A DNA stretch of 64,000 nt from Nemertoderma westbladi (lineage: Eukaryota; Animalia; Xenacoelomorpha). The translations under genes and the position numbers were made by a program. Position 1 is the stretch's first letter; every line of letters begins with the position of its first letter. A model generated the notes under the pieces. It was not told the DNA's origin. It made no database searches and was given only the letters and a program-made list of their open reading frames with translations. The DNA lies in the NCBI GenBank assembly GCA_032718475.1, contig JAUCBJ010001957.1, positions 32,298 to 96,297 of the forward strand. The letters run 5' to 3'. Below are positions 2,860 through 34,637 of the stretch, in pieces.

Positions 2860-2873
2860 CATCTGGGTCACCA
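2860..2873 (-). promoter_or_regulatory. Primer-binding site, tRNA-Trp type
   Basis: TGGTGACCCAGATG directly after the putative LTR, close to the tRNA-Trp PBS consensus TGGTGACCCCGACG. Confidence 0.75.
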
Positions 2874-2874
2874 G

Positions 2875-3037
2875 TTTAGCGTGAGATAGTGAGATAAGTT
2901 TAGTGTATTATTATCATTTGATCATTAAAATAATAGGTAATAAAAGTATTAATACATACATATACACGTTTATCAGTACAAAGTGTAGTGATCTAGCTAG
3001 CTAAAATAATCATTGTTTATTGTTTTGCCTAGCAACA
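2875..3037 (-). repeat. Putative 5' LTR (~160 bp) of the CsRn1-like element
   Basis: Begins TGTTGC on the minus strand at 3037, abuts the PBS and is AT-rich with AATAAA; partner LTR is outside the window. Confidence 0.55.
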
Positions 3038-5311: not shown

Positions 5312-5317
5312 ATGCCG

Positions 5318-8062
5318 TACGTATCCACGTACTGTATGTGCGTACGTATCCACGTATCTATATTACATTGAGCGATTTCACATAAGCGTAGGCGAATACT
5401 GTTTTCTGATTGGTCCAGATGAGATATGAGAAAAATTTCATACAAAATGCTTAGGCCTAAAGTCTGTAAGTTAAGTTAGATTCGACAATGTGCCCATATA
5501 TGGGACCGTTACAGTATGCTAAAAAGCGGAAACAACTGGAAACACGTCATTTTCGTACCGTGTAGATACGATTTGGAATACTATTCCCGAAAAGGTAATG
5601 GAATGATAATCACGATCTATCGCAATACTACAACTACAGTATGTTTAAAAATAAATTGAACCTGATGGATATCTCGGAAATCACTACTTTTGACAGATAG
5701 TTATGGTCTATATAATAATTATTTTTCCATTTGCGTGCACTTTTATTTATATTTAGTTACATTCTTACATTGAAATACTATACAGCACACATCTGCCTTT
5801 TATTGTCGGCAAGTCAGAATTAAATTAAAATTAATTATTTGTAATTTCCATAATTAACAAAGTCTGATTAAGACCATTATGATTTATGTATCATTACTGT
5901 AGGCCTATTATGATTAATGACAATAATTATTAGATTAGCACAACTCACTAAAAATAAAATTCAATATCTCAATGACACACGGTCTGAAAATATGACAGAC
6001 TACAGCAAGCATACTGCCTGACAGACAAATCCGAAACCTGGAAACACCGCGGTGGTACTGTAATGATAGGCCTACAGGTACAGAGACACTGTCAGACTGT
6101 TGACTTGACAATGATCTCCTATCTTATCTGGACCAATCAGGAAACAGTATTCGCCTACGCGTATGTATAGGCGTATGTCAAATCGCTCAATGTAATGTAT
6201 AGATACGTGGATACGTACTTACATACGTGTAAAAGTTTAACCCTATGTTTTCTGGTTTTATGCTATTTTAGTTGTTAGTATTCCATTAGGAACATATATC
6301 TGCATATGATATTGGACAGTTCAGTAGGGAACATACCCTTAAATAAGCTCCAAAAGTGGGTTCTTATTTAAGGAAAATGGCTCTTATTTAGGGGTTTTTG
6401 GGCCTTTTTTGGATATTTTTTCGACATAATATGCAAGAACATATGATATTGGACAGTTCAGCAGTTGGATATAGCAGAATAGACATGATATAGACATACT
6501 GCAGTACTGCTGTATTGTAGTGCTGCAGATTTAGACCTGGCCTACCTGAGACTGGCAGACTGGAGGGAGACTTTTGCAACTGCAGCTCAGCTGTACCAGA
6601 CTGTCTGTATCATTACCGTACCGCATACCGGCAGACCGGTAAAGCGTACCCCGTACTACTGTACAGCTGTACTACAGTCAGACAGTACTGCGGGCTGGCG
6701 GGGTTCCTTCCGTTCCTGATCAGCTGATATGACAGTACAGCAGTATCATACCAGGATACTTGATACTGCTGTACTGTTGACTGGTTGACTGTGTAGGGTA
6801 GGCCTTTTACTGCTGTACTGTAATGCCGGCACAGCATTCTTAAAAATGCAGCTGCAATGCAGCATGCCTGTAAAAGCTTTTGCGGAATTAGCCGGTTATT
6901 TTCCCCGTAAAGTACTCTGTAGTTGGTTTAACAGGCATAAAATGCCGTATCCTTACTGTACTGGTGTTTTAGTGGACATAAAAAGCCATTTCTTCTGTAT
7001 GTGTACTTTAGCGGACATAATTAGCAATTCTATGTCGCAATACGCGAAATCCTCTTGAAACAGTGTAGTTACTATGACGACAGCTAACAGCTGAGCTGTA
7101 CAAGTGTAGCTTTTCCTTGTTCTCTGGTGTTTCTTTGTTCGGTCAACCAATCAGAGCGATTCTCCTGCTTTTTGTACAGAAACCTCCGAGAAATCGCGCA
7201 ATGCATTATGGGTCATTGTTTACATTTTGTCCTGAGCCCAGAAGACCGGCTTTGGAATCTCTGTGTTTTCAGTCTTTAGCCCAACATTAGTAGGCTTAAT
7301 TATAGAACGTATATCTGTTATCAAACAAACCTTACTTACTTAACAATTCATACCATACCAAATCACATATCATAACAAGTTATACCTTAACATTGTACTG
7401 CTATTTACTGTCGGTTATTCATTATATCAGTTGATGGAATATTATTATATTTGGAATACCGATAAATAATTACAAAACCCTCAATCTTCTTGATATACTG
7501 AAGGTAAGAGAGACTGGTTACATATAACGATTGCGACTTACATTAAAGTGGTTTTTGAAGTGAATCTAATCACCAATGCTATTTCATAGGCACTACATGT
7601 ATTGGTTGTTGTTCTCTTTATATGTGACTAAAATTAGTGAAGGTCGGCAGATCGGTGTGCAGCATTGTGTATGATTGTGACTGATAACAAAGCATCTCCT
7701 AAAGAATGCGCTATATACGTGAATCCATAGCCATCCCGTTGTGTCTAGTTTAAGTCATAACTCTGTTTACATATCTAGAGCGCCACGTCCTAAAGGAACT
7801 GTTAATATTTCCCGAAAGTGAATAATATTTGTCAGAGATTATATATTACGATCAGTCGAATAATACAGTAGGCCTACACCGCAATAAGGTTAGGCTTCCG
7901 AATCCAGTCTCCCGGGTATATCCAGCGGGTGAATGGTCGCGCATAGACTGGCTTCGGCTAATGTAGTGTATCAAATACTCGTCATAGGCTAAAGACGATT
8001 TATTATCTAGAAGATATCCCAATTTGGCAGGTTAAACTGCTAAAGGTCTAAAAGCGCGAACA
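5318..8062 (+). repeat. 5' LTR of the giant BEL element (~2.75 kb)
   Basis: 5886-8062 is repeated in the 3' LTR with about 10 substitutions and 3 small indels. The 5' boundary is inferred from the TSD: (TG)TACG...CGAACA imperfect terminal inverted repeat. Confidence 0.75.
5334..6226. repeat. Fold-back segment: ~100-bp inverted repeats at 5334-5430 and 6117-6226
   Basis: GTACGTATCCACGTATCTAT...ATTACATTGAGCGATTT...GCGTAGGCGAATACTGTTT..TGATTGGTCCAGAT is present in both orientations. Confidence 0.8.
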
Positions 8063-8074
8063 ATAACAGATATA
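8063..8074 (+). promoter_or_regulatory. Candidate self-priming primer-binding site
   Basis: ATAACAGATATA immediately follows the LTR end and is the exact reverse complement of TATATCTGTTAT at 7310-7321 inside the LTR; no TGG-type tRNA PBS is present. Confidence 0.65.
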
Positions 8075-8349
8075 GCTTCTGTATTGCAGTAGGCAATAAA
8101 GCTGAAGTACCGGTCAGCCGGTCAACCGGTACCTAGTAGGCCTGACTACCTAACCACCCGGACCGGTACCTACAGCAGTACAGGTACAGCAGTATTATTC
8201 GATTTGATAATTATATACCGGTAGGCCTTAATATTGAATCAGGGAGGGCCCGCCCTGGTTTTTTATTGAGATTTTACTTATTTCTGTCAGTTTTATTTAT
8301 TTGTAGGCCAATATTGAGCAGAAGGCGTGTAAGCCTGCTCAGATTGTAC

Positions 8350-8925
8350 AGATAATTTGTAGGCTGGACTGTTGTCTGACTGTTGTTAAGTCTGAAGGGA
8401 CTGTAGTGTGTGTAGAGCGTATGTCCGAAAAAGTACTAGTTAGGAAAGTAGGGGCTTCCAGTGCTGTGAGGTAAACCCCCTCGAAAGAATAAGTCGTACT
8501 ACTCGGTTAGAACGCATACTAACTAACCATTTCGGAGTCTGCATATACTGTAGTGTATTTAGGCTTGATAGTAGTCTGCCAGCGTTTGGTCTGTACTTTG
8601 TTTGTGTAGTCTGTACGGGTAGCGTAATATTTCTTATTTAGATAATTTGTAGGCTGGATTTTGCCTGGCTGTTGTTAGGTCTGAAGAGATTTCGGTGTGT
8701 GTAGAGTGTATGTCCGATAAAGTGCCAGTTGGGAACGTAGGGGCTTCCTGTGCTGTGAGGTAAACCCCCTCGAAAGAATAAGTCGTACTACTCGGTTAGA
8801 ACGCATACTAACTAACCATTTCGGAGTCTGCATATACCGTAGTTTGTTTAGGCTTGATAGTAGTCTGTCAGTATTTGGTCTGCATTTTGTTTGAGTAGTC
8901 TGTACGCGTAGCGTAATATTTATTA
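8350..8925 (+). repeat. Two ~290-bp tandem repeats in the BEL 5' leader
   Basis: AGATAATTTGTAGGCTGGA...GTGCTGTGAGGTAAACCCCCTCGAAAGAATAAGTCG...AGCGTAATATTT starts at 8350 and again at 8640. Confidence 0.9.
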
Positions 8926-10311
8926 TTCAGAGTTTATGCGATTATTCGCAACATTCATATCCCCAAGTTTATTCCTACAGTAATTGTGCTTGTTATATAT
9001 ACCGTTATAGTTAAATTAACCCCGGTACTACATCAGGGCTGCTTGGCGTAGGTAAAGACTGGTGATTTTGTGCCCCGGTCACTCCAGCAGATACCGTGGT
9101 TCTTTTAGCTGTTCAAGTATTTTTAACTACTGATTATTTGTTGTATAAGTACTTGTACCTAATTTAGGGTTTAGTGTACAGTGCTTTCCGAAGTTGATTA
9201 GTGTGTGGGCAGTATATTTGTGTTGTAAAGTGGTTAATAGGCACGTTGGTTCTGGTAGACCGCGGTAATTAACTTCTAGGTAGGAACACTCCGTGATACA
9301 TAACGTAGTACTTATAGCGATACGGCTATAAGTCGTCAGACGGTGGTATTTTCCTATCTGGACAACGCAGTATATTTACTACTACTTATTATTTTCAAAT
9401 ACATTTTCCTATCTGGACAACGCAGTATATTTACTACTACTTATTATTTTCAAATACCGTAGTACCCTGTCCGTTGTAATAACCAGATATTCTAACCCTT
9501 TGTTAGGCTGGTTTGTAGACTTCTTGTAAAATTACCCTAAAATTTCGTACTTGTAATTTTTTGTGTTTATTTAGAGATTGTAATCTCACACCGAATTGTA
9601 CGTAATTTGTAGTATTAAGTAACTTAGGTAAATTAGAATTATTTGTTTTAGTGTCCAACAAGTAGCACTTCACTGAGAGCGCACAGCTTCTGTGTAGTGA
9701 CTCCCCCCAGAAATAATAACATTTATTTTAAATATTGACAAAAACCCATTAAACGGGTATATATATTATAAATCAACTCAAACGATTTATAAATAGTAGG
9801 CCTGCCATACAACAATTAGGTCTCAATATCAGTTGGACTACTGCTCAAATAACGGTAATAAAGTAAGTAAAGTAACCAAGTAACCCCTAAAAATTCAGAA
9901 ATTCAATTATTTAAAATAATTGACATACCGGTATTCACGATAGGCTTATTATTTATTTCTATAAATTTAGGCTAAATTATATACCGGTATTCTGTAATTA
10001 ATTCTAGTCTGTAATTATACTTATATATATACATTATAAGTGTAAGCTGTATACTGGTATTCACGATAGGCCTATTATATATTTATATATATTTGTGCTG
10101 AAATTATATACCGGTATTCTGTGACAAACCTAGTCTGTAATAATACTTATATATATACTATAGGCATACCGGTATTCTAATATATTATATATATATCACG
10201 CTACACTGAGTAGCAGTATCGGTAATCAATTACTAAGCTAACAGCGATACTGAATTACTAGACTTGCTTTAACTGTAATATAGCAGTAGGCATTCAACTG
10301 TACAAACAAAC

Positions 10312-11037: not shown

Positions 11038-11453
11038 GGTGGCAGCAACAGGCGGCGGCGGACTCGTGAGGGTCTGGGGGCACGTTAAATCTCTCCTATA
11101 GTGCAAGGGAGTTACTGAAGGCCCTCGTGTCTAGCGAACCATGAATCAACATGGTGCCGTGGTACCGTCTAGTCGGCCTGTTGCCGTACTGCCAGTCCTG
11201 TACACAGTAGGGGTGGTGGCTTAGTGTGATCTGTGGTTTATGTGGTCTATGTGGTAGGTCTATGTTTGGTATGTATGAGTTGACCAGACTTTTTACTGTC
11301 TCCGATCGGTTGCCAAAACGTGTCTTTTCCCAGGGTAGCACTATTGGAATGGAGGTGTTACATCGGAATGGACAGGTTTCTGATGATTCTGTTGGTACTA
11401 CTATTGGAATGGAGGTGGCACCCGGAATATCGGCTGCAAGGAGGGGTTGGTGT

Positions 11454-11809
11454 TGTAATAATTTGTTGTATAGGTTATAGTCATGATCACTATAATGGTT
11501 ACAGTGAGTAGAGTATATGATTAGTATAAAGTGATTTAATAATTGGTTTGTAAACGAGTGTGTATGTAGTGAGAAGTTATCCAGCTGTGATGATTTGGAT
11601 GAGAGAATATGTATAGGAGAGGGGTGGTGAGGAAAGGGGTTTTTATGTAGATTATTGGTGTAAACGATTGGATATAGATAGAGTAAAAGATATATTATAA
11701 TTGTTTTGTGTATATTATATGTATTGTATCAATTATTGTGTATTTATATTATATTCTATCTTAAAAATAACTGAAAGCATTTTAAATATTTCGAAATAAA
11801 ACGATTACA
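11454..11809 (+). repeat. 5' LTR (356 bp) of the nested gypsy
   Basis: Direct repeat of 16180-16531. Confidence 0.95.
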
Positions 11810-11825
11810 AGCTATCACCGCAATT

Positions 11826-12596
11826 ATGTCATTAAAGTTAAATCAAATCATACGTCCGTTTAGTGGTGATGACAAAACTGTTAATTTTAACGAATGGATG
11901 AAGAAATTTCTATTAGTCGCGAAAACTCAGAAATGGGAACAGTTGGAAAATCACCTGCCATTGTTGTTGGAGGGGTCAGCATTCACGGTGTATGACCAAT
12001 TATCAGATGAAGCCAAAGGAAATATAGATAGTATCGTAAGCACGTTGACCACCGCATTTTCGTTGACACCAACACAAGCATATAAAGCTTTTACGAAACG
12101 TATGTGGTCTCCGGATGAAGCTGTTGAAGTGTACCTGTCGGACTTGAAACGGTTAATTTTGCTAACTGGAATCAAACCATCGGACATTGAGCGTATTCAA
12201 CCAATAATAAAAAGTCAATTTGTTAGCGGATTACCCAATGACCTCAGTAGTAAACTAGTTACAATGAATGCGGTTGAAAGTGAATTGATGAGTTTAGAAG
12301 AATTAGTGACGAAAGCGAGACGTATCATCGCAGATCGAAAGTGCGATGACGGTATAGGAATTATCGGTGCTGTTGGGGAACGCCGCCGTCCTTATCAGCA
12401 CCCACATAATGATGGTGATCGTAGTAACAGAGCTACAGCGTCGTTTATCTGTTACAATTGTGGGAAACCGGGACATATTTCGTCACAATGTCCCTCAGAG
12501 AGAAAAACTGTCAAATGTTACCGCTGCTCTGGTTATGGCCATATTGCGAGAAATTGCGGCACTAAGGAATCGGGAAACGCGAATGGGGGGTTGTAG
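11826..12596 (+). CDS. gag: gag with two CCHC zinc knuckles
   Basis: CYNCGKPGHISSQC and CYRCSGYGHIARNC; G-GGA-AAC slippery heptamer at 12572-12578 leads into an open -1 frame. Confidence 0.92.
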   Translation: MSLKLNQIIRPFSGDDKTVNFNEWMKKFLLVAKTQKWEQLENHLPLLLEGSAFTVYDQLSDEAKGNIDSIVSTLTTAFSLTPTQAYKAFTKRMWSPDEAVEVYLSDLKRLILLTGIKPSDIERIQPIIKSQFVSGLPNDLSSKLVTMNAVESELMSLEELVTKARRIIADRKCDDGIGIIGAVGERRRPYQHPHNDGDRSNRATASFICYNCGKPGHISSQCPSERKTVKCYRCSGYGHIARNCGTKESGNANGGL

Positions 12597-15500
12597 GGGT
12601 CGCCGCTTTAACTTCCTCCCGCGATTTGTTGCCAAGATGTTCGGCGAATATTTCATCAACAGACGGATCAGCTAAGTATATTTGTAGAGTAGGTGTTGAC
12701 TCTTATTGTTCAAAGACTATTGTATCATCAGGTTTTCTGTATGGTAAATCTGAATTTATATTTTCTAATGCCAATTGTTCAGAGACTTTTATGATGTTAA
12801 ACGGTACCAAAATTTATACTGTAGGGAAGATTTCAATTTATTTGCATAATTTACCTGGTATTGTTGGAGGGTTTTGTTTTGATGCATGGGTAGTAAACGG
12901 ATGTGATATATTTGATGTTGATGTTTTATTGGGAATCGATGCAATTGTGTGTTTGGGTGGTGTGAAGATACATTCATCTGATTGTATATCTGTTTCGTCA
13001 ATTGAATTTTTAGGATGTGGATCAAATAATTTACGTCCAAATTATTGTGGTGCACTGACATCAAATAGTGATAATGATAAAGTTAAGTCAGATAGTACAA
13101 ATTCTAGTGGAGACAATAATGAGCTAAATTCAAATACCGCAAGTTTCTTTTATCATGATAACGGTGATATCACCATCACTGAAAGTGATTTCGTAGTAAA
13201 GTTTGATAGTTTATCAAAGTTGTGGACCGTAAATTGGGTGTGGAAGAATAATAAGCCCCCAATTCATAAAGTTGGCAGTGGTATTGGTGATTACAATATA
13301 AAGTTATCAGATTCACATAACACCATGTTTGAGAATGAAATTCAAGTTTGGTTGACAAATGGGTTTATTGTAGAATATGACCCGATTGAACACGGTGAAA
13401 TTGAATGTGTGTTACCGTTAATGCCTGTGGTCCAGGAACACAAGATCACAACTCCTGTGAGACCTGTATTAGATTACTCAATGTTGAATAGTTGCTTGGT
13501 GAGTTTTCCAGGACAACAAATGGGAATATGTAATAATAAATTGCGAAACTGGCGACAGCGTTCATCAAATAGTACGATTATAGATATTAAAAAAGCATAT
13601 TTACAGATAAGAGTTGCTCCACATTTGTTGAAATATCAAGCACTTTTATACAAAGATACTATTTATATAAAATGACACGAATGGGGTTTGGATTAGAGAT
13701 TGCAAGAAAAGTTTTAGAAACTGTGATTGAGTTCATCTTTAGTGTTAGCAAATTTCCCGAAAATGCAGTAGATTTCTATGTGGATGATGTCTATTGTGAT
13801 GAGAATTTGGTATCTGCAAGTTCAGTGGAAATTGCTTTGAACAATTACGGTTTACCCACAAAACCCCCTACAAGTATCAAAGAAAATGACGTTTTGGGCT
13901 TACATGTATTCGAAGCAAATTCTGAGTTGTGTTGGAAGCGACGTAACAAAGGTGATCTTATACCAGATTTATTTAGCATGACTCGAAGAGGTCTACATTC
14001 ATGGACTGGTAAGGTAACTGGCCTATATCCCGTATGCAGTTGGTTACGATTAGCCTGCAGTTGGTTGAAACGACAATGTATAGGAGATTGGGATAGTCCA
14101 GTTGACTCATGGATATTAAAATTGGTGAAAGTTACATGGGAGAGCATATGTAATAACGATCCAGTATGTGGAGTATGGAATGTAAATACTCTTAATGGAA
14201 ATTGTGTGATGTGGTGTGATGCTAGTGACATTGCTAGAGGAGTTCTTCTAGAAGTCGATGGTAGAATAATTGAGGATGCTGCTTGGCTACGAAAGAAAAA
14301 TGAATCAAAAGCTCATATCAATGTGGTGGAATTAAATAGCGTGGTCGATGGAATCAATCTCGCAATAGAGTGGAATATTAAACGATTCACATTATGTTCA
14401 GATTCACAAATTGTGTGCAGGTGGGTTGAAGCAACTCTGAAAAATATACATCGAATTCATGTCGGGGGAATGTATATGAATTTGGTAAAACGTCGTTTAG
14501 AACTGTTGCTAGAGTTAGTACAGTTATATGGTTTAGATGTTGAGGTAAAGTGGGTGAAATCTGAACAAAACTTGTCTGATAAACTAACGAGACTACCCAG
14601 AGGTTGGAAAGAGTCTGCCACGGTAAATCAACCTGAAATCGAGACATGTAATACGGATAAGTGTTCGGGAATCGGTGCTGTAATGTACCATAACGATAAA
14701 GAACTATATTGTGGAATTAAATTAGAGCATATAAGAAGAGATCAAATTCAAGACAAAGATATAAACATAATGCTAAGTGATCCTTCACATATCTCAAAAA
14801 CAACAAACTCATACAAAAATGTTAGATCTCAGTTAATGGTGTATAGCGGAATGTTAGTTCGCAAAGTGAAAGTTCCTCCAAACGATTTATTAAATGTTCC
14901 AGTAATTCCAAGTAGTTTAGTCAACGAAGCTATTAAGAATGTCCACGATTCTTATGGTCATCCATGCAGTGAAACTACAAGAGAAATAATCAGGCGGCAA
15001 GGTTATTTCCCCAATATGATGTCGCAATGTCAGAAATTCGTTAAAAGTTGTGAAAGGTGTTCATTATCCGATCCTAAAAAACCAGACGATATTAACCCAA
15101 CAACCCAAATGGTAATACCTGATCGTCCATGGCAAGTGGTTCAGATTGATACCATGAAAATAACTGGTGATATACACTTTGTAGGGTTACTGGCTATGTT
15201 TGATGTATTAACAAAGTATGTTGAAGTAGAACTTTTGAAAGATTATACTAAAGAGACTGTTGTGTCCAAGTTGCTGAAGATATGCCGACGATGGGGTCCC
15301 CCCGAGGTGATACGTTGCGATTCTGGTACTGAGTTATGGAATTCCATGTCGAAAGCATTATATAACTCTTTTAATATTATTGTTAGACGCGGAGCAGTGA
15401 GACATCCAAGAAGTCAGGGAGCAGTAGAACGTTTTAACAGATCATTTTTAACATTGGTACGAAAAACGTTAGAACGAAGTACAGATTGGGCTGTAGAATT

Positions 15501-16122
15501 GGATCAATTGTTATATTTCTATCGTCACAGACCTACGACTACAACTGCCATGAGTCCTACAAAAGCGATGTGTGGTTGGGATTGTTGTTCTAGAAATATC
15601 GATAAGAAATCTGGGTCATCATGGTCCCAAGGTCTAAATCCTTCTTTAGTTGATACTCTGGAAGAGTGTATGTCAAAATTAGATGGAATAGACATTTCAA
15701 CACCACAAATCTTTGCCACTGGAGATTTGGTGTATTTATTACGTGAAGATAGGTCGCCTAAACACATGACACAATGGACAAAGGGATGGACAGTGACTGA
15801 TATTATAAACTCAACAACAGTACGAATATCTAATACCAATAAGGAGATCAAAGACAAATTTGTAAACATTGATATAATAAAACACGCAGTAGAAGTAAAT
15901 ATTGATGACCGTTTGGAAAAAGCAAAGATTAAAGAGGATGATAATATAATAAAATCCGATGACAGCGATGATTTCTTAGAATTTGAATGTGGAGAGTTTG
16001 ATCAAAGCGATAACAGCAACCAAAATACTGATAATGACGAAAATGAAGATGCAGTAATACCACGACGATCTACACGTGTGAGACGTCCTGTTGATCTGTA
16101 TGGAAATCCAAAACGTTATTGA
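12572..16122 (+). pseudogene. pol: pol of the nested gypsy, with one 2-bp frameshift near 13665
   Basis: PR-like VDSYCSKT; RT PVLDY...DIKKAYLQI...RMGFGL...YVDD; RH WCDASD...HINVVELNSV...SDS...SDKLTR; IN HDSYGH...CERC, QIDT, CDSG, VERFNR. Confidence 0.9.
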
Positions 16123-16179
16123 TGATGTTACTGAGGGGGATGTAATAAATATGATAGACGGGGTTCTATCAGAGGGGGA

Positions 16180-16531
16180 TGTAATAATTTGTTGTATAGG
16201 TTATAGTCATGATCACTATAATGGTTACAGTGAGTAGAGTATATGATTAGTATAAAGTGATTTAATAATTGGTTTGTAAACGAGTGTGTATGTAGTGAGA
16301 AGTTATCCAGCTGTGATGATTTGGATGAGAGAATATGTATAGGAGAGGGGTGGTGAGGAAAGGGGTTTTTATGTAGATTATTGGTGTAAACGATTGGATA
16401 TAGAGTAAAAGATATATTATAATTGTTTTGTGTATATTATATGTATTGTATCAATTATTGTGTATTTATATTATATTCTATCTTAAAAATAACTGAAAGC
16501 ATTTTAAATATTTCGAAATAAAACGATTACA
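16180..16531 (+). repeat. 3' LTR (352 bp) of the nested gypsy
   Basis: Direct repeat of 11454-11809, preceded by a PPT. Confidence 0.95.
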
Positions 16532-17484
16532 CGAGTGAATGATACTCTGGAATCTGTGGTTTGTGTGTGGACGATCAGTGGCAGTTTGCTTGAGCTTTCT
16601 GTTGCTGTGGGTACGTGGTATACGTGAGTGTATGTATGGCCACTGCGAGTGAGTATGGGAAACCTTGCCGGTTGGTTCAGTCGCCGCTGGTTATTAGTAG
16701 GACCATATCTTTACTGCGCCCCAGCATATTTTGTGCACACAAAGTTATTTTGCCCTGACGGCAAAATAAGGTACTCTCGGCTCTTTTATTAGTCGATACA
16801 ATTTTGTCCCCTCTGATTTTGTCACCGATTTGTCTTTCCCGATTATGTCCTCTGTGTGTGCATGGTATGCGTCAGATTTGTGTTTACCGTTATGTACTTG
16901 ATTTCGTGAGCATCTATTGAGTACACGTGTACAGTGACTGGTAAGTGGTGACTTGTTCTTAGCTTTAAGCTAGACAGTATTGTTTGCGGAACCGACTTCC
17001 CCTCAATACTGCCGGCGAGGCGGGTGAAAACGTGTCAAAATTCCATGTTGGGTAGCGCAAGCCCACTTGGGACAAGACCGTCGGTTTGGCTCAAGGGCGA
17101 CCTTTATGCTCGATCGCTATCGACTGGTCCACCCGCCGGTTGACTCTCTGAGTTGGCTCAATGTACAGTCAGGCCACAGTAAGTTGACAGTAGCCGACCA
17201 CCTGGCTACACCGATGAGCTGTGCCGGTGTGATCGGGGGATTGAAAATTGAACCCGGGAAGCATCGGGCTACCCTCCGGCCTGGTCTGATAAAAACGGAG
17301 TCAGACTGGCCCCAAGGGTGGTGGGACAGCGTCCGCCTCGTGGGTGCGCCTCGGAGAGGAGCCCAGAAGGACGCAAGCGTTATCAAGTTCGAGAAAGAAT
17401 TCTAAGAATCAGACTAATCCTATCGGCCTTTGAGGAGGCTTCGAAAAGAAGACAAGACACGTCGTTGCAAGTTGCCGTAAAGAC

Positions 17485-23400: not shown

Positions 23401-24714
23401 CGTGTTGGCGGAAGATTAACGAATGCTCCATTATCCTTTGACACTAAGTTTCCCATACTCATTAGAAATCTTGAAATACAAGTCAAGATGATTGTAGATG
23501 TTCACAGCAAACTTTATCATGCTGGTAGAGAACGAGTTCTTAGCGAAATTCGAACTCGCTATTATTTTTATAAACCCCGTAGAGCTCTGAACCAAGTTCT
23601 TAGGAACTGCATACCCTGTAGGAAAGCATTCAGTAGGCCTTTAACACAGCGAGAGGCAGAATTACCTAGGGAACGAGTAAGCTTCTATGAACCACCCTTT
23701 ACTAATACCGGTGTAGATTTATTTGGCCCTATTGAAGTATATCGTGCTAGGACTATAGTCAAGAGATGGTGTGTCATCTTTGTTTGTATGACTTGTAGAG
23801 CTATCCATCTCGATATGGTGAACGATTTATCTACCAACAGCTTCCTATTAAGCTTACGACGACAGATCGCTCGCTTTGGAACTAGTAACACGATAAGATC
23901 TGATAAGGGAACAAACTTCATTGGTGCCAACAATGAAATCAAAGCTTACGTCAAAGATTGGAACCAAAGACAGGTGGACGATCAGCTAAGGGTAACAGCG
24001 TCTAGCTGGACCTTTAACGCCGCCGACACCCCTTGGTGGGGAGGAAGTTGGGAGAGATTAATTAGAAGCGTGAAGACCGCATTTCACTTTATAGTGCCGT
24101 GCCGCGCGTATCTCACCGACGAACTTTTGCGGACGTTAATGGAGGAAATCGCCGCCTATCTCAACGAGAGACCGCTTATGCCAGTCTCATCGAGTCCCGA
24201 TTCCCTGGAAGCACTAACACCCGCGCACTTCCTACTGAAGAAACCTGTAGCCATGCTCCCACAATCGGAAATCACAGACGGAGACGAATACTGCCGGCAA
24301 ACTTGGCAACTCATGCAGTTGTTATCCCGTTGTTTCGCTGACCATTTCGAAAAACACTATCTGCCCACACTACAACTTCGAACGAAGTGGTTTGCGCAGC
24401 AAGAAAACGTCAGCGCTGGAGACATGGTCCTTATTGTGGATTCAGATCTTCCACGTAAGCGGTGGCAGACAGGTCGTATCATCGAGACTCACATCTCGGA
24501 TGACGGTTTGGTGCGATCGGTAGAACTCGTCGTCATGCGACGTAACTTCAAGAAACTGGGAATTGTCTTCGAGACACAGCAGCTCAATCGCCCAGTTGGT
24601 CGTTTATGTTTACTGGAAAGAGACAGAGAACTCTCCGGAAACTATGGAAGACAAGATACTCTTCCCACGACCACCTCCCTAATCCAACAAACATCTAGGG
24701 ACTCCCCAGCTTAG
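17485..24714 (+). pseudogene. BEL/Pao gag-pol polyprotein with three frameshifts and one in-frame stop
   Basis: KFNGD..KW..F...LSNGEKLRFL..CLEG (DUF1759-like), triple Cys/His box CVLC..H...CYNCL..GH...C..C...HHILLH, protease ALLDSGS, RT RVVFDGS/DIEGMFLQV/YMDD, RH FGDAS/NPADIASRG, IN TGVDLFGP/SDKGTNF/GGSWERLIRSVK and a BEL-type C-terminus (GLVRSVEL...RPVGRLCLLE). Confidence 0.95.
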
Positions 24715-26155
24715 TAGCGTATGGAGTGGGTGTGTGACCATATTATTTTATATTCTTATCATTTTATATTTATGTATGTATTATTATGTAATTTTCTTAT
24801 AATCGTTTTCTTTAATTTTATTTAGCAGAATATTATTTTAGCGATTATTTAGTAGATTAGTGCAATATATATTCGTGTTTATTATTTAATTACTTATATA
24901 TTATATATTTAGTGCGACGGCGAGAAATAATTCTTTTTCTTTTTCCTTTTCCTTACTGTCCGTATTACATTACAAATACGTAACTACAATAAGATGAAAT
25001 ATCCGTACTTATTAAAGTACAATAAAGCTCCTACTATATTCAAGTAGTATTGGTAAGTAGAGTATTAGGAATGCAAAATTCAGATCCTCGTGTCTCGGCT
25101 AAACCAAGCTCTGGGTAGACCTTGGAAACGACTTGCCTCTTCTCACTGACATTGCTTCGTGCGATATTGCTCTCATACCGTATATTAAATAATACATATA
25201 GTAGCATGATGTCCCTTTAACAGTAGCGTATAACGCAAAATAAATCTGTTAAACCCTTTGACCATCTGCAATTCTAGTCGATTAAGATATCGTGGCACCC
25301 ACTGATATACTTGAAAGACAAAATTCTAGAATCAGTGGTTAACGTCCCCAGACAAGTTCTGGAATAAACTGGTGCCTATCCTAAATATTAATTATTAATA
25401 TTTACAAAATCTGTCAAATTTTAGATCCTTTAAAATTCTGGTCTATTAAGATATCGTAGCACTTACCGATATTCTTAAAAAGACCAATTTCCTAGAATCA
25501 AGGATCCCAGTCCCCAGACATGTTCTGGAATAAAATTGTGTCTATTTAACATTAAATAATAAAATTTACGGGAATAAATTTAAATTAATATTTTAATGAA
25601 TTTAATAAATTTTCATTTTTATACAATTTATAACATTCCCAAAATTCCTTTAATTAATAGATCATGGGAGCGGAGATTCACTCTATTAAGTGTATTAGTG
25701 TGCGAGAATCTCCAATATATAGTCAATAGCCGATAAAATTCATAAAATCATGTATAGAGAGGATATTGACCATTAAAGAATTACTATTAAATAGCATCCC
25801 AGATCTGTATGCATGAGAATTACCCTAATTCTACCGCTAGCTTTCCATAATGTCACCATGGCAACAACCACGCTAGAATTAGAAGTGAGTTAAACGAACA
25901 ATAGAAAGCTTGCCCCATTGAATAGCATAGGGAATCAATAGCGCACTGCTAGTATCCAAGGATACATAATAATAAAGTGACATTCTGGAAGGCACTGACT
26001 AACGGACAAATGGCCCGAATGTGTACAGTTTGTGACAGTTGTGTTGAATTTGTGCGTTTATAGGTGAATGTTACTGCTAAAGTGTGTTTACAGTAGCGAG
26101 TCGCAATTGTGAAAGTAGCCCTACTCTGCCGAAAGAACCTGAAGTACATCTAAGC

Positions 26156-26280
26156 CTTTGGGACGGACAGTGGAGTGACTTGTGCCGGTTATCGTTGTCG
26201 TTGTGTAGCTACATCGTTGGCGAAAGCACAGCGACGACGGTACATCGGCGCTGAGGATCTTGCACTGTCCGGGGGCAAAG
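26156..26280 (+). ncRNA. Predicted rod-like RNA hairpin upstream of the accessory ORF
   Basis: Nested pairings 26156-60/26276-80, 26164-72/26263-71, 26182-89/26244-51 and 26190-205/26227-242, including G-U pairs that form only on the + strand. Confidence 0.6.
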
Positions 26281-26352
26281 AGGGGTAGGCAGCGACGCCC
26301 GCTAGCCTAAAATATAAACTCATTATAATATAGATAAACTCATATAGCAGAT

Positions 26353-29241
26353 ATGACTGAGTTGATAGAAGATGATCTTGGTATCAGGGAGCGATATACT
26401 CTACCTTTACAAGCGTTTGTCGATAGCTTGATACGCGGCGACGCTGGTCCAACTACTACGGAGAATGATGGTCGTTATATCGAACCGCCAATGTCCCCGG
26501 AGCAACTTACGCGCGAATTGGATTATAGAAAGTTCACCGCTCGCTATACGCATCGTAATGGTACGTATATGGACTTCTTAACTACTGGCCATCCTATCGA
26601 TTTACACGATACGGACGATGTAGACACCGAAAGGGAAATGGTTTTATTTAAATATCATACCCAGCGGAGTCGGAACGATAAACCGAGAATAGAACACGAG
26701 AACTCTATTCGAAACAGACTCGAAAGGGAAGACGTTGAAGAGCCGGATAAACGCAGCGACTTCAACGATTATCTGGAATTCCTGAGAGAGACATATCTCA
26801 ATATTGCCAGCCAACAAAATCTCGAAACTCGATATCCTCAAGGTATACATCATGATCCTATGATAGAACTCAAACGACTCTATTTCACTATGATGTATCT
26901 TACCGCCGATTGACCGCTACCTGTCGTCCCAGATAGCTTCGAACAGATGGAGGAATATTGTAAAACTGGAGAACGATCACCCGCATTTCCCCTGCAGGAC
27001 GTGCGTCTTTGGTATTACTGCGACGAATGCCCTAGACCCAATCAGCAAACGGAAAGACATAAACATCCGCGGAGACGTTGCGCTAAACACAGTTTTACAC
27101 GATATACTTATGGGAGTTTCGAGCGAAACCTGTTCGACGTATCACCTACGGTCGCTCGGCTCAAACGATCCTTGAATAAACCAATGATCAGAGTTCCGGA
27201 ATACTCAGTCAGACCTCCTCATTCCTCAGTTAGACCTCAGACTCTTGATCCTAATAGTATCACGGATCCTCCCGAACTGTACTCACTGTTCAAAGATCTA
27301 GTGTTACCCGAACAGTTGATCGGTGGCACTCCGGTAGTGGGCTCGCTAGATATTCGTCAACCCTACCTAGCCGGATTAGGACGCGGTCATCTAATATCGC
27401 CGTTTAACCCGTACAACCGTCCCGGCTTCACCCCGATACAACCCGTTACGGAAGTCGAAGAGAGTGTCGTACGAAACGCTTTAGACGCTATTCGGCAGAA
27501 AATCGGAAAGGGAACTTACGATTATTTGGAGAAACGTAAATTGCAGCAACAAGTCCAAGCGGTGAAAGAATTAGCTTTACCCCAGTTCGATAGAGAAATA
27601 CAAAATCTCGAGGAGGACATCGAACGTGGACGAACCTACTCTTTACAAGAGTTCCTAGATGAGTGTTTACAACAACAAGCGGAGGAAAATCAGCTCGAGG
27701 AGAGACATATAGAACTAGATGAGAGAGAAGAAGCAGCTTTAGCCCAGCCAGAAGCTCAAATCCTTATAACAGATCTCTATTCTAAAACCATTATCCATCC
27801 TTCGATGGTTCCTCATTTCGGAGACAAACTCTTCACCACGGCACAGCCTCAACCGGTTGATATCAACCTAAGATCTCGAGATCTTATCTCTGACGCTCCC
27901 ATGTTGCAACGTCCGCTCATCGAATCCGCTCGTGTCGATGGTATACTCGTTGAACCTCCGGACAATAGAGCGGATCTTGTCCGTCGCATGGTACACGATG
28001 TTAACATACGCGCTAAACCTTTACCGGACTCGTTTTATGGGATCAAAGATCACCCTTATTACGTCAATCTAACACAATATTACATGGTAAAACCGGAAGA
28101 TCCTACACATAGTCTGAGGTTTCTACCACTAATAAATCCTCTCGATCTTGTCGAACTCGAACAACTGCAGAAACATCTGGATCAGTTAGTTAAAGTAAAC
28201 TCATTTCGAAAACCATATAATGTTTCCAGAATAGAGAAAGAAACAATACCTCCGTATAATCTTGATGGATTCATCAAAACTCGATTAGTACACTGGAATC
28301 TTTACGTGTTATTCGAGGAGGAAAGAATACAACGATATGGAGATGTGGAAACATATACTACACAATACTTAAAGTATAGAGATCTACCTAATGCTAGCGA
28401 ATGCGCTACCTTGTGGCATCCAGTGGGAATGACTCTCGAAAACGCCACTAAAGAGTGGAACGAGACTCTTAACGTTATCGAGATGTATGGAGTTGTCACT
28501 TACGATAACGAAGGTAGCGTTCCGGTTGGAGAACTGGGAACTACGCGAATGATACACATACGAGGACTCGCTGGTTCTACCCACATATTTACTCGAGCGT
28601 GTTCCGATGTGATTGATTATTCTTTTGAGACTCTTACTGAGACACAAAAGAAACTCAGACATGGACAATTCGAACTCGCGCAGCGTTACGTCACCGACAC
28701 CGAGCGCAAACCGGCCATGGGTATCGATGGATCGATGTTACCCCAGCCCGTGCTCGAGATGTTGTTTAACGAAAGAATCCTTAAAATCGGCTCAGCTGTT
28801 TATGGAGATCTCCAAAACGACTTTCGGAACATGGAAAACATTCCATACCCTTTCGTTGATACTCAGCTGATTGCTCCCTGGGCAGAAGGCCGAGGTTTCT
28901 TCCGCACTATGTATGCCAATACACCCAGCGGCATTACTAAAGTACAACGAACCTCTATCGGACATCTTGCCTTTCAAGAATACGGATGGAATTTCAAGGT
29001 TGGAAATCCTACCAATTACCAACAAGTATATGGAGATCATTATTCTCGTTTATACTTTGATGGACCATTGACCGCACCTGGCGCCGTATATAGCTTTATG
29101 AGTGTTCCACTTCGTCCCTCCTTAGCTATATACACGATCTTTGAAAACGCAGCACTTGCCGGTTGGCTAGCCGTGCAGTTGTGCAGTCGTACCATGTATC
29201 ATTACTGTAGGCCTATTATGATTAATGACAATAATTATTAG
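26353..29241 (+). pseudogene. Accessory ORF (~960 codons, one in-frame TGA at 26911) with a C-terminal DEDDy/WRN-like 3'-5' exonuclease domain
   Basis: ORFs 26353-26913 and 26947-29241 share a frame. ExoI VVTYDNEG (28504/28510), ExoII LPQPVLEMLFNERILKIGSAVYGD (28807), FVDTQ and ExoIII-like PLRPSLAIYTIFE (29131/29143). The last ~15 codons come from LTR sequence. Confidence 0.75.
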
Positions 29242-30999
29242 ATTAGCACAACTCACTAAAAATAAAATTCAATATCTCAATGACACACGGTCTGAAAATA
29301 TGACAGACTACAGCAAGCATACTGCCTGACAGACAAATCCGAAACCTGGAAACACCGCGGTGGTACTGTAATGATAGGCCTACAGGTACAGAGACACTGT
29401 CAGACTGTTGACTTGACAATGATCTCCTATCTTATCTGGACCAATCAGGAAACAGTATTCGCCTACGCGTATGTATAGGCTTATGTCAAATCGCTCAATG
29501 TAATGTATAGATACGTGGATACGTACTTACATACGTGTAAAAGTTTAACCCTATGTTTTCTGGTTTTATGCTATTTTAGTTGTTAGTATTCCATTAGGAA
29601 CATATATCTGCATATGATATTGGACAGTTCAGTAGGGAACATACCCTTAAATAAGCTCCAAAAGTGGGTTCTTATTTAAGGAAAATGGCTCTTATTTAGG
29701 GGTTTTTGGGCCTTTTTTGGATATTTTTTCGACATAATATGCAAGAACATATGATATTGGACAGTTCAGCAGTTGGATATAGCAGAATAGACATGATATA
29801 GACATACTGCAGTACTGCTGTATTGTAGTGCTGCAGATTTAGACCTGGCCTACCTGAGACTGGCAGACTGGAGGGAGACTTTTGCAACTGCAGCTCAGCT
29901 GTACCAGACTGTCTGTATCATTACCGTACCGCATACCGGCAGACCGTCAAAGCGTACCCCGTACTACTGTACAGCTGTACTACAGTCAGACAGTACTGCG
30001 GGCTGGCGGGGTTCCTTCCGTTCCTGATCAGCTGATATGACAGTACAGCAGTATCATACCAGGATACTTGACACTGCTGTACTGTTGACTGGTTGACTGT
30101 GTAGGGTAGGCCTTTTACTGCTGTACTGTAATGCCGGCACAGCATTCTTAAAAATGCAGCTGCAATGCAGCATGCCTGTAAAAGCTTTTGCGGAATTAGC
30201 CGGTTATTTTCCCCGTAAAGTACTCTGTAGTTGGTTTAACAGGCATAAAATGCCGTATCCTTACTGTACTGGTGTTTTAGTGGACATAAAAAGCCATTTC
30301 TTCTGTATGTGTACTTTAGCGGACATAATTAGCAATTCTATGTCGCAATACGCGAAATCCAAGAGGAATTCAAGAGGAAACAGTGTAGTTACTATGACGA
30401 CAGCTAACAGCTGAGCTGTACATGTGTAGCTTTTCCTTGTTCTCTGGTGTTTCTTTGTTCGGTCAACCAATCAGAGCGATTCTCCTGCTTTTTGTACAGA
30501 AACCTCCGAGAAATCGCGCAATGCATTATGGGTCAATGTTTATATTTTGTCCTGAGCCCAGAAGACCGGCTTTGGAATCTCTGTGTTTTCAGTCTTTAGC
30601 CCAACATTAGTAGGCTTAATTATAGAACGTATATCTGTTATCAAACAAACCTTACTTACTTAACAATTCATACCATACCAAATCACATATCATAACAAGT
30701 CATACCTTAACATTGTACTGCTATTTACTGTCGGTTATTCATTATATCAGTTGATGGAATATTATTATATTTGGAATACCGATAAATAATTACAAAACCC
30801 TCAATCTTCTTGATATACTGAAGGTAAGAGAGACCGGTTACATATAACGATTGCGACTTACATTAAAGTGGTTTTTGAAGTGAATCTAATGCTATTTCAT
30901 AGGCACTACATGTATTGGTTGTTGTTCTCTTTATATGTGACTAAAATTAGTGAAGGTCGGCAGATCGGTGTGCAGCATTGTGCAGTATTGTGTATGATT

Positions 31000-33500
31000 C
31001 CCTGCAAACATTTTACGTTAATTACGCTAATCTAACGTTAGACTTTAGTCTGTTTTAGGTTAGAAAAATAAAGTTATAAAAATAACTTAGAACAAACGTT
31101 TTCTAACGTCTTATAATCGTTTAAAAACTACATGTCTAAAATCAACTAAACCCAAACGTTAAACTGACGTTCAATTTTAACATAGATTTTTAACGTTATT
31201 TTGAAACGTCTGACATTGGTTAAATTTAATCATGTACAAAAATGACTAAACCCAAACGTTAAACAGACGTTGAATTTTAACATCAATTTTTAACGTTATT
31301 TTGAAACGTCTGACATTGGTTAAATTTAATCATGTACAAAAATGACTAAACCCAAACGTTAAACAGACGTTGAATTTTAACATCAATTTTTAACGTTATT
31401 TTGAAACGTCAGACATTGGTTAAATTTAATCATGAACATAAATCACTAAACCCAATATTAAACAAACGTTGAAATTTAACATCGATTTTTAATGTTAATT
31501 TAAAACGTCTGACATTGGTTAAATAGAATCATTCTTGTATTAGAAAATTGTAATGTAATTTAGTCACGTTAATATTTATTGCAACAGGTCCACTGGAATA
31601 TAGTGTTGTAATTATTCAGTGTCATGCAACTATCACTCAAGTTGTACCTTGTGGTCTTACTTTTGTACCTGGGGGGGGGGGGGGGGGGGGGTGTGGTCTT
31701 ACTTTTTTTACCTGGGGGGGGGGGGGTGTCTTACTTTTGTACTAGGGGGTCTTACTTTTGTTTCAGGGTGTCTTACTTTTGTACTTGGCGGGGTCTTACT
31801 TTTGTACCTGGAGGGGTCATACTTGGACTTACTTTTGTACCTGGGGGTCTTACACTACTTTTGTACCTAAGGGGGGGGGGGGGGTGGTATTACTTTTGTA
31901 CCTGCAGGTCTTACTTTTGTTCCAGGGGAGTCTTACCTTTCTACCAGGGGGTCTTACTTTTGTACATGGGGGGGGTGGGCTTACTTTTGTACCTAGAGGG
32001 GTCATACTTTTGTACCAAGGGGGTATTACTTTTGTACCTGGAGGGGTCATACCTTTGTACCTGGGAGGTCTTACTTTTGTACCTGGGGAGGGTCTTACGT
32101 TTGTACCTGGGGGTCTTACGTTTGTACCAGGGGGTCTTACTTTTGTACCTGGGGTGGGTCTTACGTTTGTACCTGGGGGCCTTACGTTTGTACCAGGGGG
32201 TCTTACTTTTGTACCAGGGGGATTTACTTTTGTACCAGGGCGGGGAAGGGGGGGTCTTACATTTGTAGGGTCTTGGGTCTTTATTTTGTACTCCCATAAT
32301 ATAACTACTGTAACTGCAATATTAATTAGTTTACATGTTCTTCAATATATTATTGTGATGTGCAAAATTATTGAATTTATAACGATGCAATATTCAATAT
32401 TTCTTTCAATTTTGGTATTATTTTTTTATACTGTAGTTTTGTTTATTTCTCATATTTTTGTTTATTGAAGTTTATTTAGCCAATAAATAGTACAGTACGT
32501 TACGCCGATTTATATTACTGATATACTGTAAATTTAGTATTGAATTATTTTTTATTCCGGGCAAAATTTGTTAAATAAGTTCATTTTCGACTGCCAATTA
32601 TTTATATAAAAACGGCACTACGTTTATTCAGTGTGAGTGGCTAAATAATATAAACACCGTTCGTTACCATCGTTAAATGATTGGTGAGGTTTGATATACA
32701 GTGTACAGTAGTTAATACAAACAATAAATTGGTTTCATTCTACCCCCAGCGTCTGCAAAAAACGTAAGTCTAACGTTAAATGACGTCAGACTCTAAATAG
32801 TTATTAATTTCCTATAATTAAATTTTAAATTATCAATTAAATTGTTTGATAACTAATAAATTTAAATAATTTAATCAAATGATTTATCTAACGTAGAGGT
32901 CAAATAGGTATGTGATAGTATTTTATATAAATCTAAACAAATTTCTTAGCAATTGATCAAAAGTCATCATATTTCTTCTCAGAAATAATCCGATATTTAT
33001 TTTGCCTAAATGCATTGAAGGTTCCACTCCTAAGGTGTAGGTGTAGGGGCGTAGGCGTAGGCTGTGTAGGTTAGGGTTAGGTCCCCCTCAGTCCCTTGCA
33101 GGTCCACCAAGTAACTGCCGCTGTGGTCCATGAAGTAAATCTCAAATGTGAACTTTTTTATTCTTTTGAATCAAAAATAACGTATTAGTGACGTATTTTT
33201 TTAACGTATTATTGATGTATTTTTTTAACGTATTTATTTAACGTAGTAACCCCGGCCAATAATACGTTAATTTAACGTAATGGTACGTTCATAAATAACG
33301 TTCATAATATACGGCTGTTAACGTTATTTTCAGACATGAGTTAATTAGTATGATTTGAGTAAAATTTAAGTATATTTTTAACGTAGTAACCCCGGCCAAT
33401 AATACGTTAATTTAACGTAAGGGCACGTTAAAAAATAACGTTGGAATGGTAGAATATTAACGTAAATTAACGTTAAATTAACGTCAAAATGTTTGCAGGG
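31000..33500. mobile_element. Non-autonomous CACTA/EnSpm-type DNA transposon inserted in the 3' LTR
   Basis: TIRs CCCTGCAAACATTTT / AAAATGTTTGCAGGG; 2-bp TSD TT confirmed by the empty site TATGATTGTGAC in the 5' LTR; AACGT(T)-rich subterminal repeats and 120-bp tandem units at ~31140-31520. Confidence 0.92.
31640..32270. repeat. G-rich minisatellite (GGGGTCTTACTTTTGTACCTG-like, ~21-24 bp) inside the MITE
   Basis: About 25 degenerate tandem units. Confidence 0.9.
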
Positions 33501-34637
33501 TTGTGACTGATAACAAAGCATCTCCTAAAGAATGCGCTATATACGTGAATCCATAGCCATCCCGTTGTGTCTAGTTTAAGTCATAACTCTGTTTACATAT
33601 CTAGAGCGCCACGTCCTAAAGGAACTGTTAATATTTCCCGAAAGTGAATAATATTTGTCAGAGATTATATATTACGATCAGTCGAATAATACAGTAGGCC
33701 TACACCGCAATAAGGTTAGGCTTCCGAATCCAGTCTCCCGGGTATATCCAGCGGGTGAATGGTCGCGCATAGACTGGCTTCGGCTAATGTAGTGTATCAA
33801 ATACTCGTCATAGGCTAAAGACGATTTATTATCTAGAAGATATCCCAATTTGGCAGGTTAAACTGCTAAAGGTCTAAAAGCGCGAACAATGCCGATACTA
33901 GTAGCTGTACTGCATACTGTACTGTAGTAAGCCTACCTGCCTACTGTAGTAGTGCACAGACTGACAGTTCATCAGTTTTTTGAATTTTTTGGTCGATTAC
34001 CCTACCTGCCTACTGCCCTATCTGCTTATATATGCGCGGATACCCGTCTGCCCGTGCTGCGCTGCCGTCGTGCTGTCGTTGCGAACAACCTGACAACATC
34101 CAGGATCCAGTCTGACACTGACAGACTGACATTTAAACTTAGGCTGTCTGGCTGTTCGCGTTCGCGTTCGGCCTTATGACAACTTAAAGTCACTGAAAGT
34201 GCTGCACTGCTACAGACAGACAGACAGACTGACAGTCTGACAGTGCTGCAGTGACAGACCTAGCCTGCTTTTTTTTTCAAACTTTTGGCCTATCCCAGTA
34301 TCCAGCTATCAATTCAGCAGTTTACTGGTAGCAATTAGCCCTAAATAATAAAATACCGGTCAGCCGGTATATATCAGTATATGATATAACAATATATAGG
34401 CCTAATACAGTAATATATTTATATAGGGCTTTAGCAGTTTAGGGGAGGGTCTATCAGTCTATTCTATATCTGTATATTACTGTATTACCGGTACTGCAGT
34501 CAGGCAGTACCAGTACTCTGGCAGTCTGGTACTGTTATACTGTAATAATACTGTAAGTAATATCAACTTCTAAATTCCAAACATACGGTACTTTATTTCT
34601 AGACAGACAGTCATAACTAGAAGTTTAAATAATTAAT

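Follow-up and report, generated by a model that had tools for sequence, protein, structure and literature searches.

Structure of the locus

The subject of this study is a large retrotransposon copy in the genome of the xenacoelomorph Nemertoderma westbladi (NCBI GenBank assembly GCA_032718475.1, contig JAUCBJ010001957.1), contained in a stretch of 64,000 nucleotides (positions 32,298 to 96,297 of the forward strand) that is hereafter called the window and to whose first letter all coordinates refer. The copy carries a BEL/Pao-type gag-pol between two long terminal repeats (LTRs) and is interrupted by a nested gypsy-like LTR element and by a 2.5-kb insertion (Table 1). A preliminary description had proposed an unusually large BEL/Pao element with extra open reading frames (ORFs) on both sides of gag-pol, the order between the two copies of a long repeat being leader, ORF0, gag-pol, a 1.6-kb spacer and an accessory ORF. 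Our analyses largely bear out this picture, find a divergent reverse transcriptase (RT) and confirm the order, while shifting the boundaries of the element and adding two features that had been overlooked, an exonuclease-like domain and the missing primer site for a transfer RNA (tRNA).

The reading that we favour, with a probability of about 0.6, is that of a BEL/Pao element with 1,194-bp LTRs and a 5-bp target-site duplication (ATGCC), inserted in a dispersed host repeat, whose LTR, leader and ORF0 represent an abundant family; together with gag-pol and an ORF bearing a likely exonuclease domain they would form a single unit of at least 18.4 kb, predicted to prime its own reverse transcription.

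Table 1. Position of the element, its parts and the adjoining sequences in the window
Feature	Position	Strand	Remarks
ATGCCG hexamer	5312..5317	+	host flank, chance-level match, outside the element
Inverted arms like those of a miniature inverted-repeat transposable element (5334-5431 / 6115-6226, 83%)	5334..6226	.	host flank; explains the extra 5' 570 bp of the preliminary description
Host flank, source of the duplicated segment, 982 bp	5887..6868	+	bridged by single contigs, depth 33-39 in X1, X2, X3
5' target-site duplication ATGCC	6864..6868	+	inside dispersed host repeat 6825-6868
5' LTR	6869..8062	+	1,194 bp; depth step at start
Predicted self-primer	7301..7321	+	7310-7321 complements the 12 bases past the LTR; 7301-7307 lengthens the duplex
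Primer-binding position	8063..8083	+	no TGG start; pairs with 7301-7321
Leader, 2.2 kb	8063..10311	+	three short tandem duplications (8349-8931, 9348-9457, 9925-10158); high depth
ORF0, orphan, 241 codons	10312..11037	+	high depth
Nested gypsy-like LTR element, not part of the unit	11454..16531	+	356/352-bp LTRs, no substitutions, one 4-nt indel; no target-site duplication
BEL/Pao gag-pol	17434..24714	+	five frames via one stop and three frame changes
Non-coding spacer, 1,638 bp	24715..26352	+	not convincingly similar to LTR, leader or the stretch before gag
Accessory ORF	26353..29193	+	947 codons, one internal stop, 3' end cut off
Likely DEDD-type 3'-5' exonuclease domain (WRN/RNase D-like)	28450..29193	+	end of accessory ORF
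Copy of host flank 5887-6868	29195..30176	+	occupies the expected position of ORF end and polypurine tract
3' LTR, interrupted	30177..33888	+	versus 5' LTR: 5 isolated substitutions, 3 indel events
2.5-kb insertion, not part of the unit	31000..33500	.	CCC...GGG terminal inverted repeats, 2-bp TT duplication, 100-bp and 21-bp tandem arrays
3' target-site duplication ATGCC	33889..33893	+	then right half of the interrupted host repeat
Uninterrupted host repeat, empty-site control	36620..36684	-	sequence match

Termini, target site and abundance of the left part

The LTR begins with TGT and ends with ACA, i.e. it has TG...CA ends, within a terminal inverted repeat that matches at 7 of 12 positions; it contains CCAAT at 7147 and ATTAAA at 7542, the latter followed by a GT-rich tract, and no AATAAA. 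ATGCC precedes the TGT of the 5' LTR and follows the ACA of the 3' LTR, and within 5287-6900 the copy at 6864 is the only one standing directly before TG. The last 44 bases before the 5' LTR form part of a dispersed host repeat, an uninterrupted minus-strand copy of which (36684-36620) contains ATGCC once and runs on past it as the sequence following 33893, save for two differences in the first dozen bases. Contigs from four public runs (X1-X4, at most three samples, X1 and X2 being one sample and possibly the source of the assembly) were mapped on positions 3000-11440; 112 of X1 and 94 of X2 diverge from the window at 6868 and proceed as the uninterrupted repeat. Since the left flank, ATGCC and the right flank together reproduce this repeat, the element was inserted there with a duplication of 5 bp. 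The sizes of both LTR and duplication fit BEL/Pao elements (TG...CA ends, LTRs of 0.2-1.2 kb, duplications of 4-6 bp).

Read depth places the same boundary between flank and element. With 44,251 (X1), 23,242 (X2) and 12,614 (X3) contigs mapped, the summed contig depth, which is not a copy number, amounted in these three runs to 77-232 over 5538-6101 and to 70,000-1,570,000 over 6948-11177, a step of hundreds- to thousands-fold from flank to LTR, and lone contigs with a depth of 33-40 bridged 5575-5857, 5832-6147 and 6469-6852. The LTR, the leader and ORF0, being far deeper than the flank, belong to a very abundant family. Two bins in 6102-6665 are raised by short repeats to 2,400-19,000 in X1-X3; the same bins stand at 59 and 303 in X4, where the element ranges over 233-1,276, and X4 alone separates flank from element less well, the value of 303 falling inside the element range. 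ORF0 is likely a real accessory gene, its length having been reached by none of 2,000 resampled sequences, and would encode a small accessory protein; it had no match in Pfam, PDB, PHROGs or NCBIfam, and none that was usable in Atlas.

In the preliminary description the LTRs had instead been drawn from 5318 onward, with a length of about 2.7 kb and a flanking 6-bp ATGCCG duplication, and the 3' LTR lacked its first 570 bp. The hexamer does occur at 5312-5317 and 33889-33894, a direct repeat of 2.18 kb exists, and both of its copies end in CGAACA, at 8062 and 33888. However, ATGCCG is found in 6.9% of resampled 600-nt stretches and the copy at 5312 is followed by TA, not TG; the depth over 5538-6101 is that of the flank and rises hundreds- to thousands-fold from 6948 on; and the 5-bp duplication at 6864 restores the uninterrupted host repeat. 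We consider these longer LTRs extremely improbable and, from the target-site duplication, the empty-site copy, the contig breakpoints and the depth step, correct the LTR to 1,194 bp and the duplication to the 5-bp ATGCC at 6864.

Duplication of the flank at the 3' end

The near-identical direct repeat of about 2.18 kb is indeed present (5886-7679 corresponding to 29194-30992 at 98.2%, and 7675-8064 to 33501-33890 at 100%), its second copy being split by the 2.5-kb insertion. Its first part, though, consists of the 982 bp upstream of the 5' LTR (5887-6868), copied before the 3' LTR (29195-30176) with four mismatches. The preliminary description had itself named a local duplication of host DNA as the objection to its 2.2-kb repeat, and for about 1 kb, the host flank, this objection holds. 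The flank copy starts inside the accessory ORF, which reads on for 15 codons to a stop, and no polypurine tract was seen before the 3' LTR, its position having been taken over by the duplicated flank. The locus is a clear case of a flank duplication inflating the apparent LTR.

After insertion, the copy decayed through the arrival of the gypsy-like element and of the 2.5-kb piece, which resembles a DNA transposon, and through breakage of gag-pol and the accessory ORF; repair or unequal exchange would have put the 982 bp from upstream in the place of the last internal bases and so given rise to the 2.18-kb repeat. The arrangement is compatible with repair that used the 5' end as its template, with tandem duplication followed by reduction to a solo LTR, and with fusion by the assembler to a haplotype that carries a solo LTR. 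It is possible, although unlikely, that the whole 3' end (flank copy, interrupted LTR and right flank) is the solo LTR of the other haplotype misjoined by the assembler, or a private tandem duplication reduced to a solo LTR. Flank and LTR copies have diverged equally, at 4 of 982 and 5 of about 1,190 positions (0.4% in both cases), and the contigs of X2 and X3 are continuous across 5887 at a depth of 36-39, giving the flank no second context in those samples; both observations favour such an origin. On the other hand, rare variants get dropped by contigs, a real repair event predicts identical numbers, and the junction shares just about one base, an overlap unusual for an assembler join. The choice affects the history of the present copy only and not the family.

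Gag-pol and placement within BEL/Pao

The gag-pol comprises a long extension of coiled-coil-like character at its N-terminus, DUF1759, three Cys/His knuckles, protease (PR), RT with its YMDD motif at 21839, Peptidase_A17, integrase (IN) and DUF5641; Pfam matches were obtained for DUF1759, the protease (weak), Peptidase_A17, the integrase zinc finger and DUF5641. Similarity to relatives begins near 18900, and the first 480 codons form an extension without assignment. Among 7,986 scored candidates, 759 passed a threshold of E<=1e-20 as protein relatives, and the named ones of the 120 matches listed belong to fish, corals, bivalves, echinoderms, a brachiopod and a nemertean; candidates from viral contigs yielded no related locus for the RT (0/16). 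By its RT and domains, with the order PR-RT-RNase H (RH)-IN, the element is classified as BEL/Pao.

Its RT is divergent among the BEL/Pao relatives compared. An RT tree was built from the window and 119 unlabelled relatives (one of the 120 listed matches was dropped for short coverage), contains no reference elements of the named clades (Pao, BEL, Tas, Suzu, Sinbad, Sailor, Dan, Flow) and leaves the clade unnamed. The RT of the window is 39-47% identical to those 119 sequences. Its nearest neighbour reaches 46.7%, compared with a median of 70.4% for the other sequences. It forms the longest terminal branch of the 120 (0.88; median 0.24), within a group of 12 leaves (support 0.95) that includes two bivalve proteins.

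Primer position and predicted self-priming

According to the profile of the international virus taxonomy committee (ICTV), BEL/Pao elements are tRNA-primed through an 18-nt primer-binding site for a host tRNA (PMC8742986), and the available description of Achilles, a BEL/Pao element, gives it a tRNA-Tyr site (PMC4580426). No tRNA-type TGG start follows the LTR here, the first TGG being at 8256, and a complement of the LTR stands in its place. This lowers the fit to the published description of BEL/Pao, not the RT-based placement. Positions 8063-8074 are the exact complement of 7310-7321 (12/12), and a 12-nt match at offsets 0-3 was reached in only 5 of 5,000 dinucleotide shuffles of the LTR. 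The duplex continues past a 2x2 loop to 7301-7307/8077-8083, with 19 of 21 bases paired, and has an energy of -20.1 kcal/mol as against -12.3 for the best other LTR window; its pair probabilities are 0.83-1.0, both the minimum free energy and the centroid fold contain it, and a U5 stem (7937-7949/8045-8059) is predicted beside it. Under the same test the nested gypsy-like element, taken as a control, gave a complementarity of at most 5 nt.

The element is accordingly predicted, from this pairing, to use the first part of its own transcript, and not a tRNA, as the primer of reverse transcription. Transcription would start near 7301-7310, the first bases of the transcript would fold back on 8063-8083, RNase H would cut after about 7321, as in Tf1, and the RT would then copy U5; ATTAAA at 7542 would act as polyadenylation signal. 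Two points tell against this scheme: of the duplexes in the Tf1 pretzel, the central one and the U5 stem are predicted but the third is not, a local hairpin taking its place, and the z-score of the global fold is just -1.5.

The duplex could also be real and serve another use: the copy of the LTR segment at the 3' end of the RNA might prime after trimming by the exonuclease, or the structure might act in packaging or translation, with some unrecognised RNA as the primer. Another use is favoured by the position of the promoter-like CCAAT, 150-160 nt upstream, and by the lack of a TATA box 30 nt before 7301-7310; the duplex, too, extends upstream beyond the 2x2 loop. Its end nevertheless coincides exactly with the LTR boundary, where a primer must end, and ATTAAA at 7542 with its downstream GT-rich tract puts the RNA 3' end some 250 nt further on, so that we hold another use to be improbable, if conceivable, and retain self-priming as the prediction.

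The accessory ORF and its candidate exonuclease domain

The accessory ORF, previously put at about 960 codons, is present and comprises 947 codons up to the junction in addition to the 15 read on into the flank copy. It contains a CxxC...CxxH motif at residue 223, a coiled-coil-like middle and no transmembrane segment, and it has no close relative in 5.8 billion proteins (0 of 6,317 candidates passed). Identity with env had been considered for both extra ORFs and was rejected, neither having a clear transmembrane segment.

The last 250 residues are probably a DEDD exonuclease domain of WRN/RNase D type, to which weak but repeated signs point. The top Atlas matches for the domain are WRN-like/PF01612 at 0.87, and its ExoII-like motif aligns with PF01612 proteins. 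The sole match among 1.84 billion representatives, P0001, covers the same region (E 4.6e-4, 31% over 112 residues). Used as a pair, the accessory domain and P0001 picked out 4 loci from 264 metagenome candidates; among the 3 loci scanned, 2 score above the cut-off of PF01612, and a profile of these metagenome loci finds WRN exonuclease structures (E 1.7e-8). The RNase D model, too, matches the domain, at E 0.003 and far below cut-off.

Several results count against the assignment. An Atlas score below 0.9 is to be taken as a lead only; P0001 itself reaches just E 0.2 to PF01612. The metagenome loci were selected by the ExoII motif itself, and their profile matches the pair of domain and P0001 at 60% probability over just 36 columns. 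The third motif is Y-x3-E, aligned with Y-x3-D of PF01612 proteins, and a D-x-E candidate for ExoI is present in an alignment that is not significant (1660/5000 shuffles). Finally, seven sub-regions gave no Pfam match above cut-off, the PDB sequence search with the domain itself returned noise only, and both structure models of the domain failed, with predicted local distance difference test scores (pLDDT) of 29.4 and 32.0.

P0001 is an orphan protein from an ENA contig of 9,449 bp, with the same variant exonuclease motifs and with C-terminal zinc knuckles, and may belong to another retroelement. A PDB sequence search with it matched these zinc knuckles only; its exonuclease region found only itself among 907 candidates, and none of 141 candidates in prokaryote genomes was a related locus for this exonuclease relative.

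The most tentative part of the proposed cycle concerns the use of the domain, which would trim RNA 3' ends (the primer overhang or silencing RNAs), by analogy with the ORF3 exonucleases of bdelloids.

One unit or a chimera

Without the insertions and the flank copy, the element measures 2 x 1,194 + 16,054 = 18,442 bp, a minimum given that the 3' internal end is lost; the earlier estimate of about 21 kb without nested insertions is reduced to this value by the shorter LTR and the exclusion of the flank. The proposal that the whole is one mobile unit holds for the LTR, the leader and ORF0, which share the high depth. For gag-pol and the accessory ORF, membership in the same unit is likely, as argued by order, strand, the absence of a second LTR pair and matching composition. 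All ORFs lie on the same strand and in canonical order between one LTR pair. No second LTR pair was found around gag-pol, none of seven region pairs beating all 40 nulls, and two of the seven being reached by just one null of 40. To the left and right of the nested gypsy-like element the sequence has a similar base composition (A 0.18/0.19, G+T 0.64/0.61).

A chimera would explain the locus differently: the abundant family would consist of LTR, leader and ORF0 only, perhaps as a non-autonomous element, and gag-pol and the exonuclease ORF would derive from another element, joined to it through recombination between two gypsy-like insertions or through nesting with loss of LTRs. The nested gypsy-like element has near-identical LTRs but no target duplication, so that recombination may have brought the left half together with the right, and the flank duplication shows that the locus has already been rearranged once. 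A purine-rich run resembling a polypurine tract, followed by TGT, lies just past the pol stop (24724-24737), and a motif starting with TGG lies before gag (17125-17140). The latter may resemble a tRNA site, and no LTR pair was found; the motif and the run could be primer-site and LTR-start relics of a smaller, ordinary BEL ancestor. Set against these points are the lack of a detectable second LTR pair around gag-pol, the common strand and canonical order, and the equally G+T-rich composition across the gap. We judge a chimera to be rather unlikely, somewhat more so than the alternatives weighed above for the 3' end and for the duplex, and keep to a single unit.

Other features of the window

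The nested gypsy-like insertion is recent by its LTR identity, yet it has no target duplication and neither a TGG-type nor a self-complementary primer site. The 21-bp array of the 2.5-kb insertion at 31000-33500 has a core of 10 bases in common with another 21-bp array, located at 38613-39300. The start of the window is occupied by a broken gypsy-type element on the minus strand (66-2907; DUF7041 gag, RT, RNase H), which runs off its edge. Long uninterrupted host-like ORFs for an ArfGAP (34629-35966), an ABC half-transporter (41764-43899) and a G-patch protein (45229-46788) lie within 12 kb, pointing either to a genome poor in introns or to clustered retrocopies. Further on, a long tandem array of 29/30 bp (about 48400-55000) has frames on its minus strand that run for about 2,100 codons without a stop, which probably just follow from the repeat unit. 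No tRNA genes were found, nor any Rfam families in 5000-34500.

Comparison with known elements

The ICTV profile (PMC8742986) assigns to BEL/Pao genomes a length of 4.2-10 kb, one to three genes and LTRs of 0.2-1.2 kb. In the accessible parts of the largest BEL/Pao survey (PMC3118150), which sets 2-15 kb as the bounds of full-length elements, median lengths lie at 6.2-9.4 kb and maxima at 16-22.8 kb, and the longest LTRs measure 2,427 bp (additional file 9). By these figures the LTR described here is ordinary, and the length exceptional but inside the maxima of an automated survey, which may include nesting. The internal region seen, 16,054 bp with its 3' end lost, is below the 20-kb threshold for giant elements that appears in the available text of Arkhipova and Yushenova (PMC6431247).

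If the unit holds, the family departs in three ways from BEL/Pao elements, described as 4-10 kb long, tRNA-primed and with env as the only extra gene: it is about double the size, predicted to be self-priming, and equipped with an exonuclease-like ORF, acquired by capture, such as has been described to date in retroelements of bdelloids. Surveys with a length limit of about 15 kb or a required tRNA site would miss such an element. The many copies of the abundant family would permit tests of covariation in the primer pairing and of selection on the exonuclease, which bear on how large retroelement genomes are sustained. A more far-reaching interpretation is an undescribed giant, tRNA-independent BEL/Pao lineage that has spread through the host genome with its own DEDD exonuclease, used for trimming the self-primer or for proofreading, its enlargement being linked to exonuclease capture as in nidoviruses, where the consulted portion of PMC7968707 links ExoN proofreading with genome growth; we regard this as doubtful. 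No giant or extra-ORF BEL/Pao element, and no such exonuclease ORF in BEL/Pao, was found in the accessible portions of the literature (including PMC554778, PMC6238403, PMC8220671, PMC9094657 and PMC12440569), although Repbase reports and subscription papers may hold some.

Taken as a whole, the element would be BEL/Pao by RT and domains, with priming predicted to be Tf1-like and an extra ORF resembling those of bdelloid elements. With the BEL/Pao elements of bivalve, coral, echinoderm and fish lineages it has in common the Gag-PR-RT-RH-IN order, DUF1759, Peptidase_A17, DUF5641 and TG...CA LTRs; unlike those described, it measures at least 18.4 kb if one unit, lacks a tRNA site, and has an orphan ORF before gag and an exonuclease-like ORF in place of env. 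Burro of planarians and Ogre of plants are likewise large and abundant elements with extra coding capacity, but they are gypsy-like, with an internal region of up to 25 kb in Burro and LTRs of 1.9-6.5 kb in Ogre, as stated in the available text of PMC6431247.

In its primer position the element resembles Tf1, Tf2 and Tj1 of the Tf1/sushi group, as well as Tcn1 and the copia element TAR, in which the complement of an LTR segment likewise directly follows the terminal CA beside a U5 stem (accessible parts of PMC4600332, PMC6317226 and 10.1101/2022.12.06.519325). Tf1-type elements are Ty3/gypsy chromoviruses or copia, whereas the RT found here is of BEL/Pao type and no chromodomain was matched; compared with Tf1, only two of the three pretzel duplexes are predicted, and the predicted R-U5 is about 750 nt. 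In the portions seen of the papers on self-priming and BEL/Pao (PMC3601003, PMC6317226, PMC5443660), self-priming is credited only to Tf1/sushi, Tcn1 and TAR/Houba elements.

The candidate exonuclease finds its closest likeness in the bdelloid retroelements Juno, Vesta and Terminons, which carry DEDDy ORFs downstream of pol with a proposed, untested role in 3'-end processing or silencing, according to the available text of Rodriguez et al. 2017 (PMC5408684). As here, an RNase D/WRN-like ORF without a transmembrane segment follows pol, with an altered acidic motif (DEED there, a D-E-D-E candidate here). The bdelloid elements belong to LTR clades of their own or are Penelope-like, whereas the domain described here ends an ORF of 947 codons with 700 unassigned residues.

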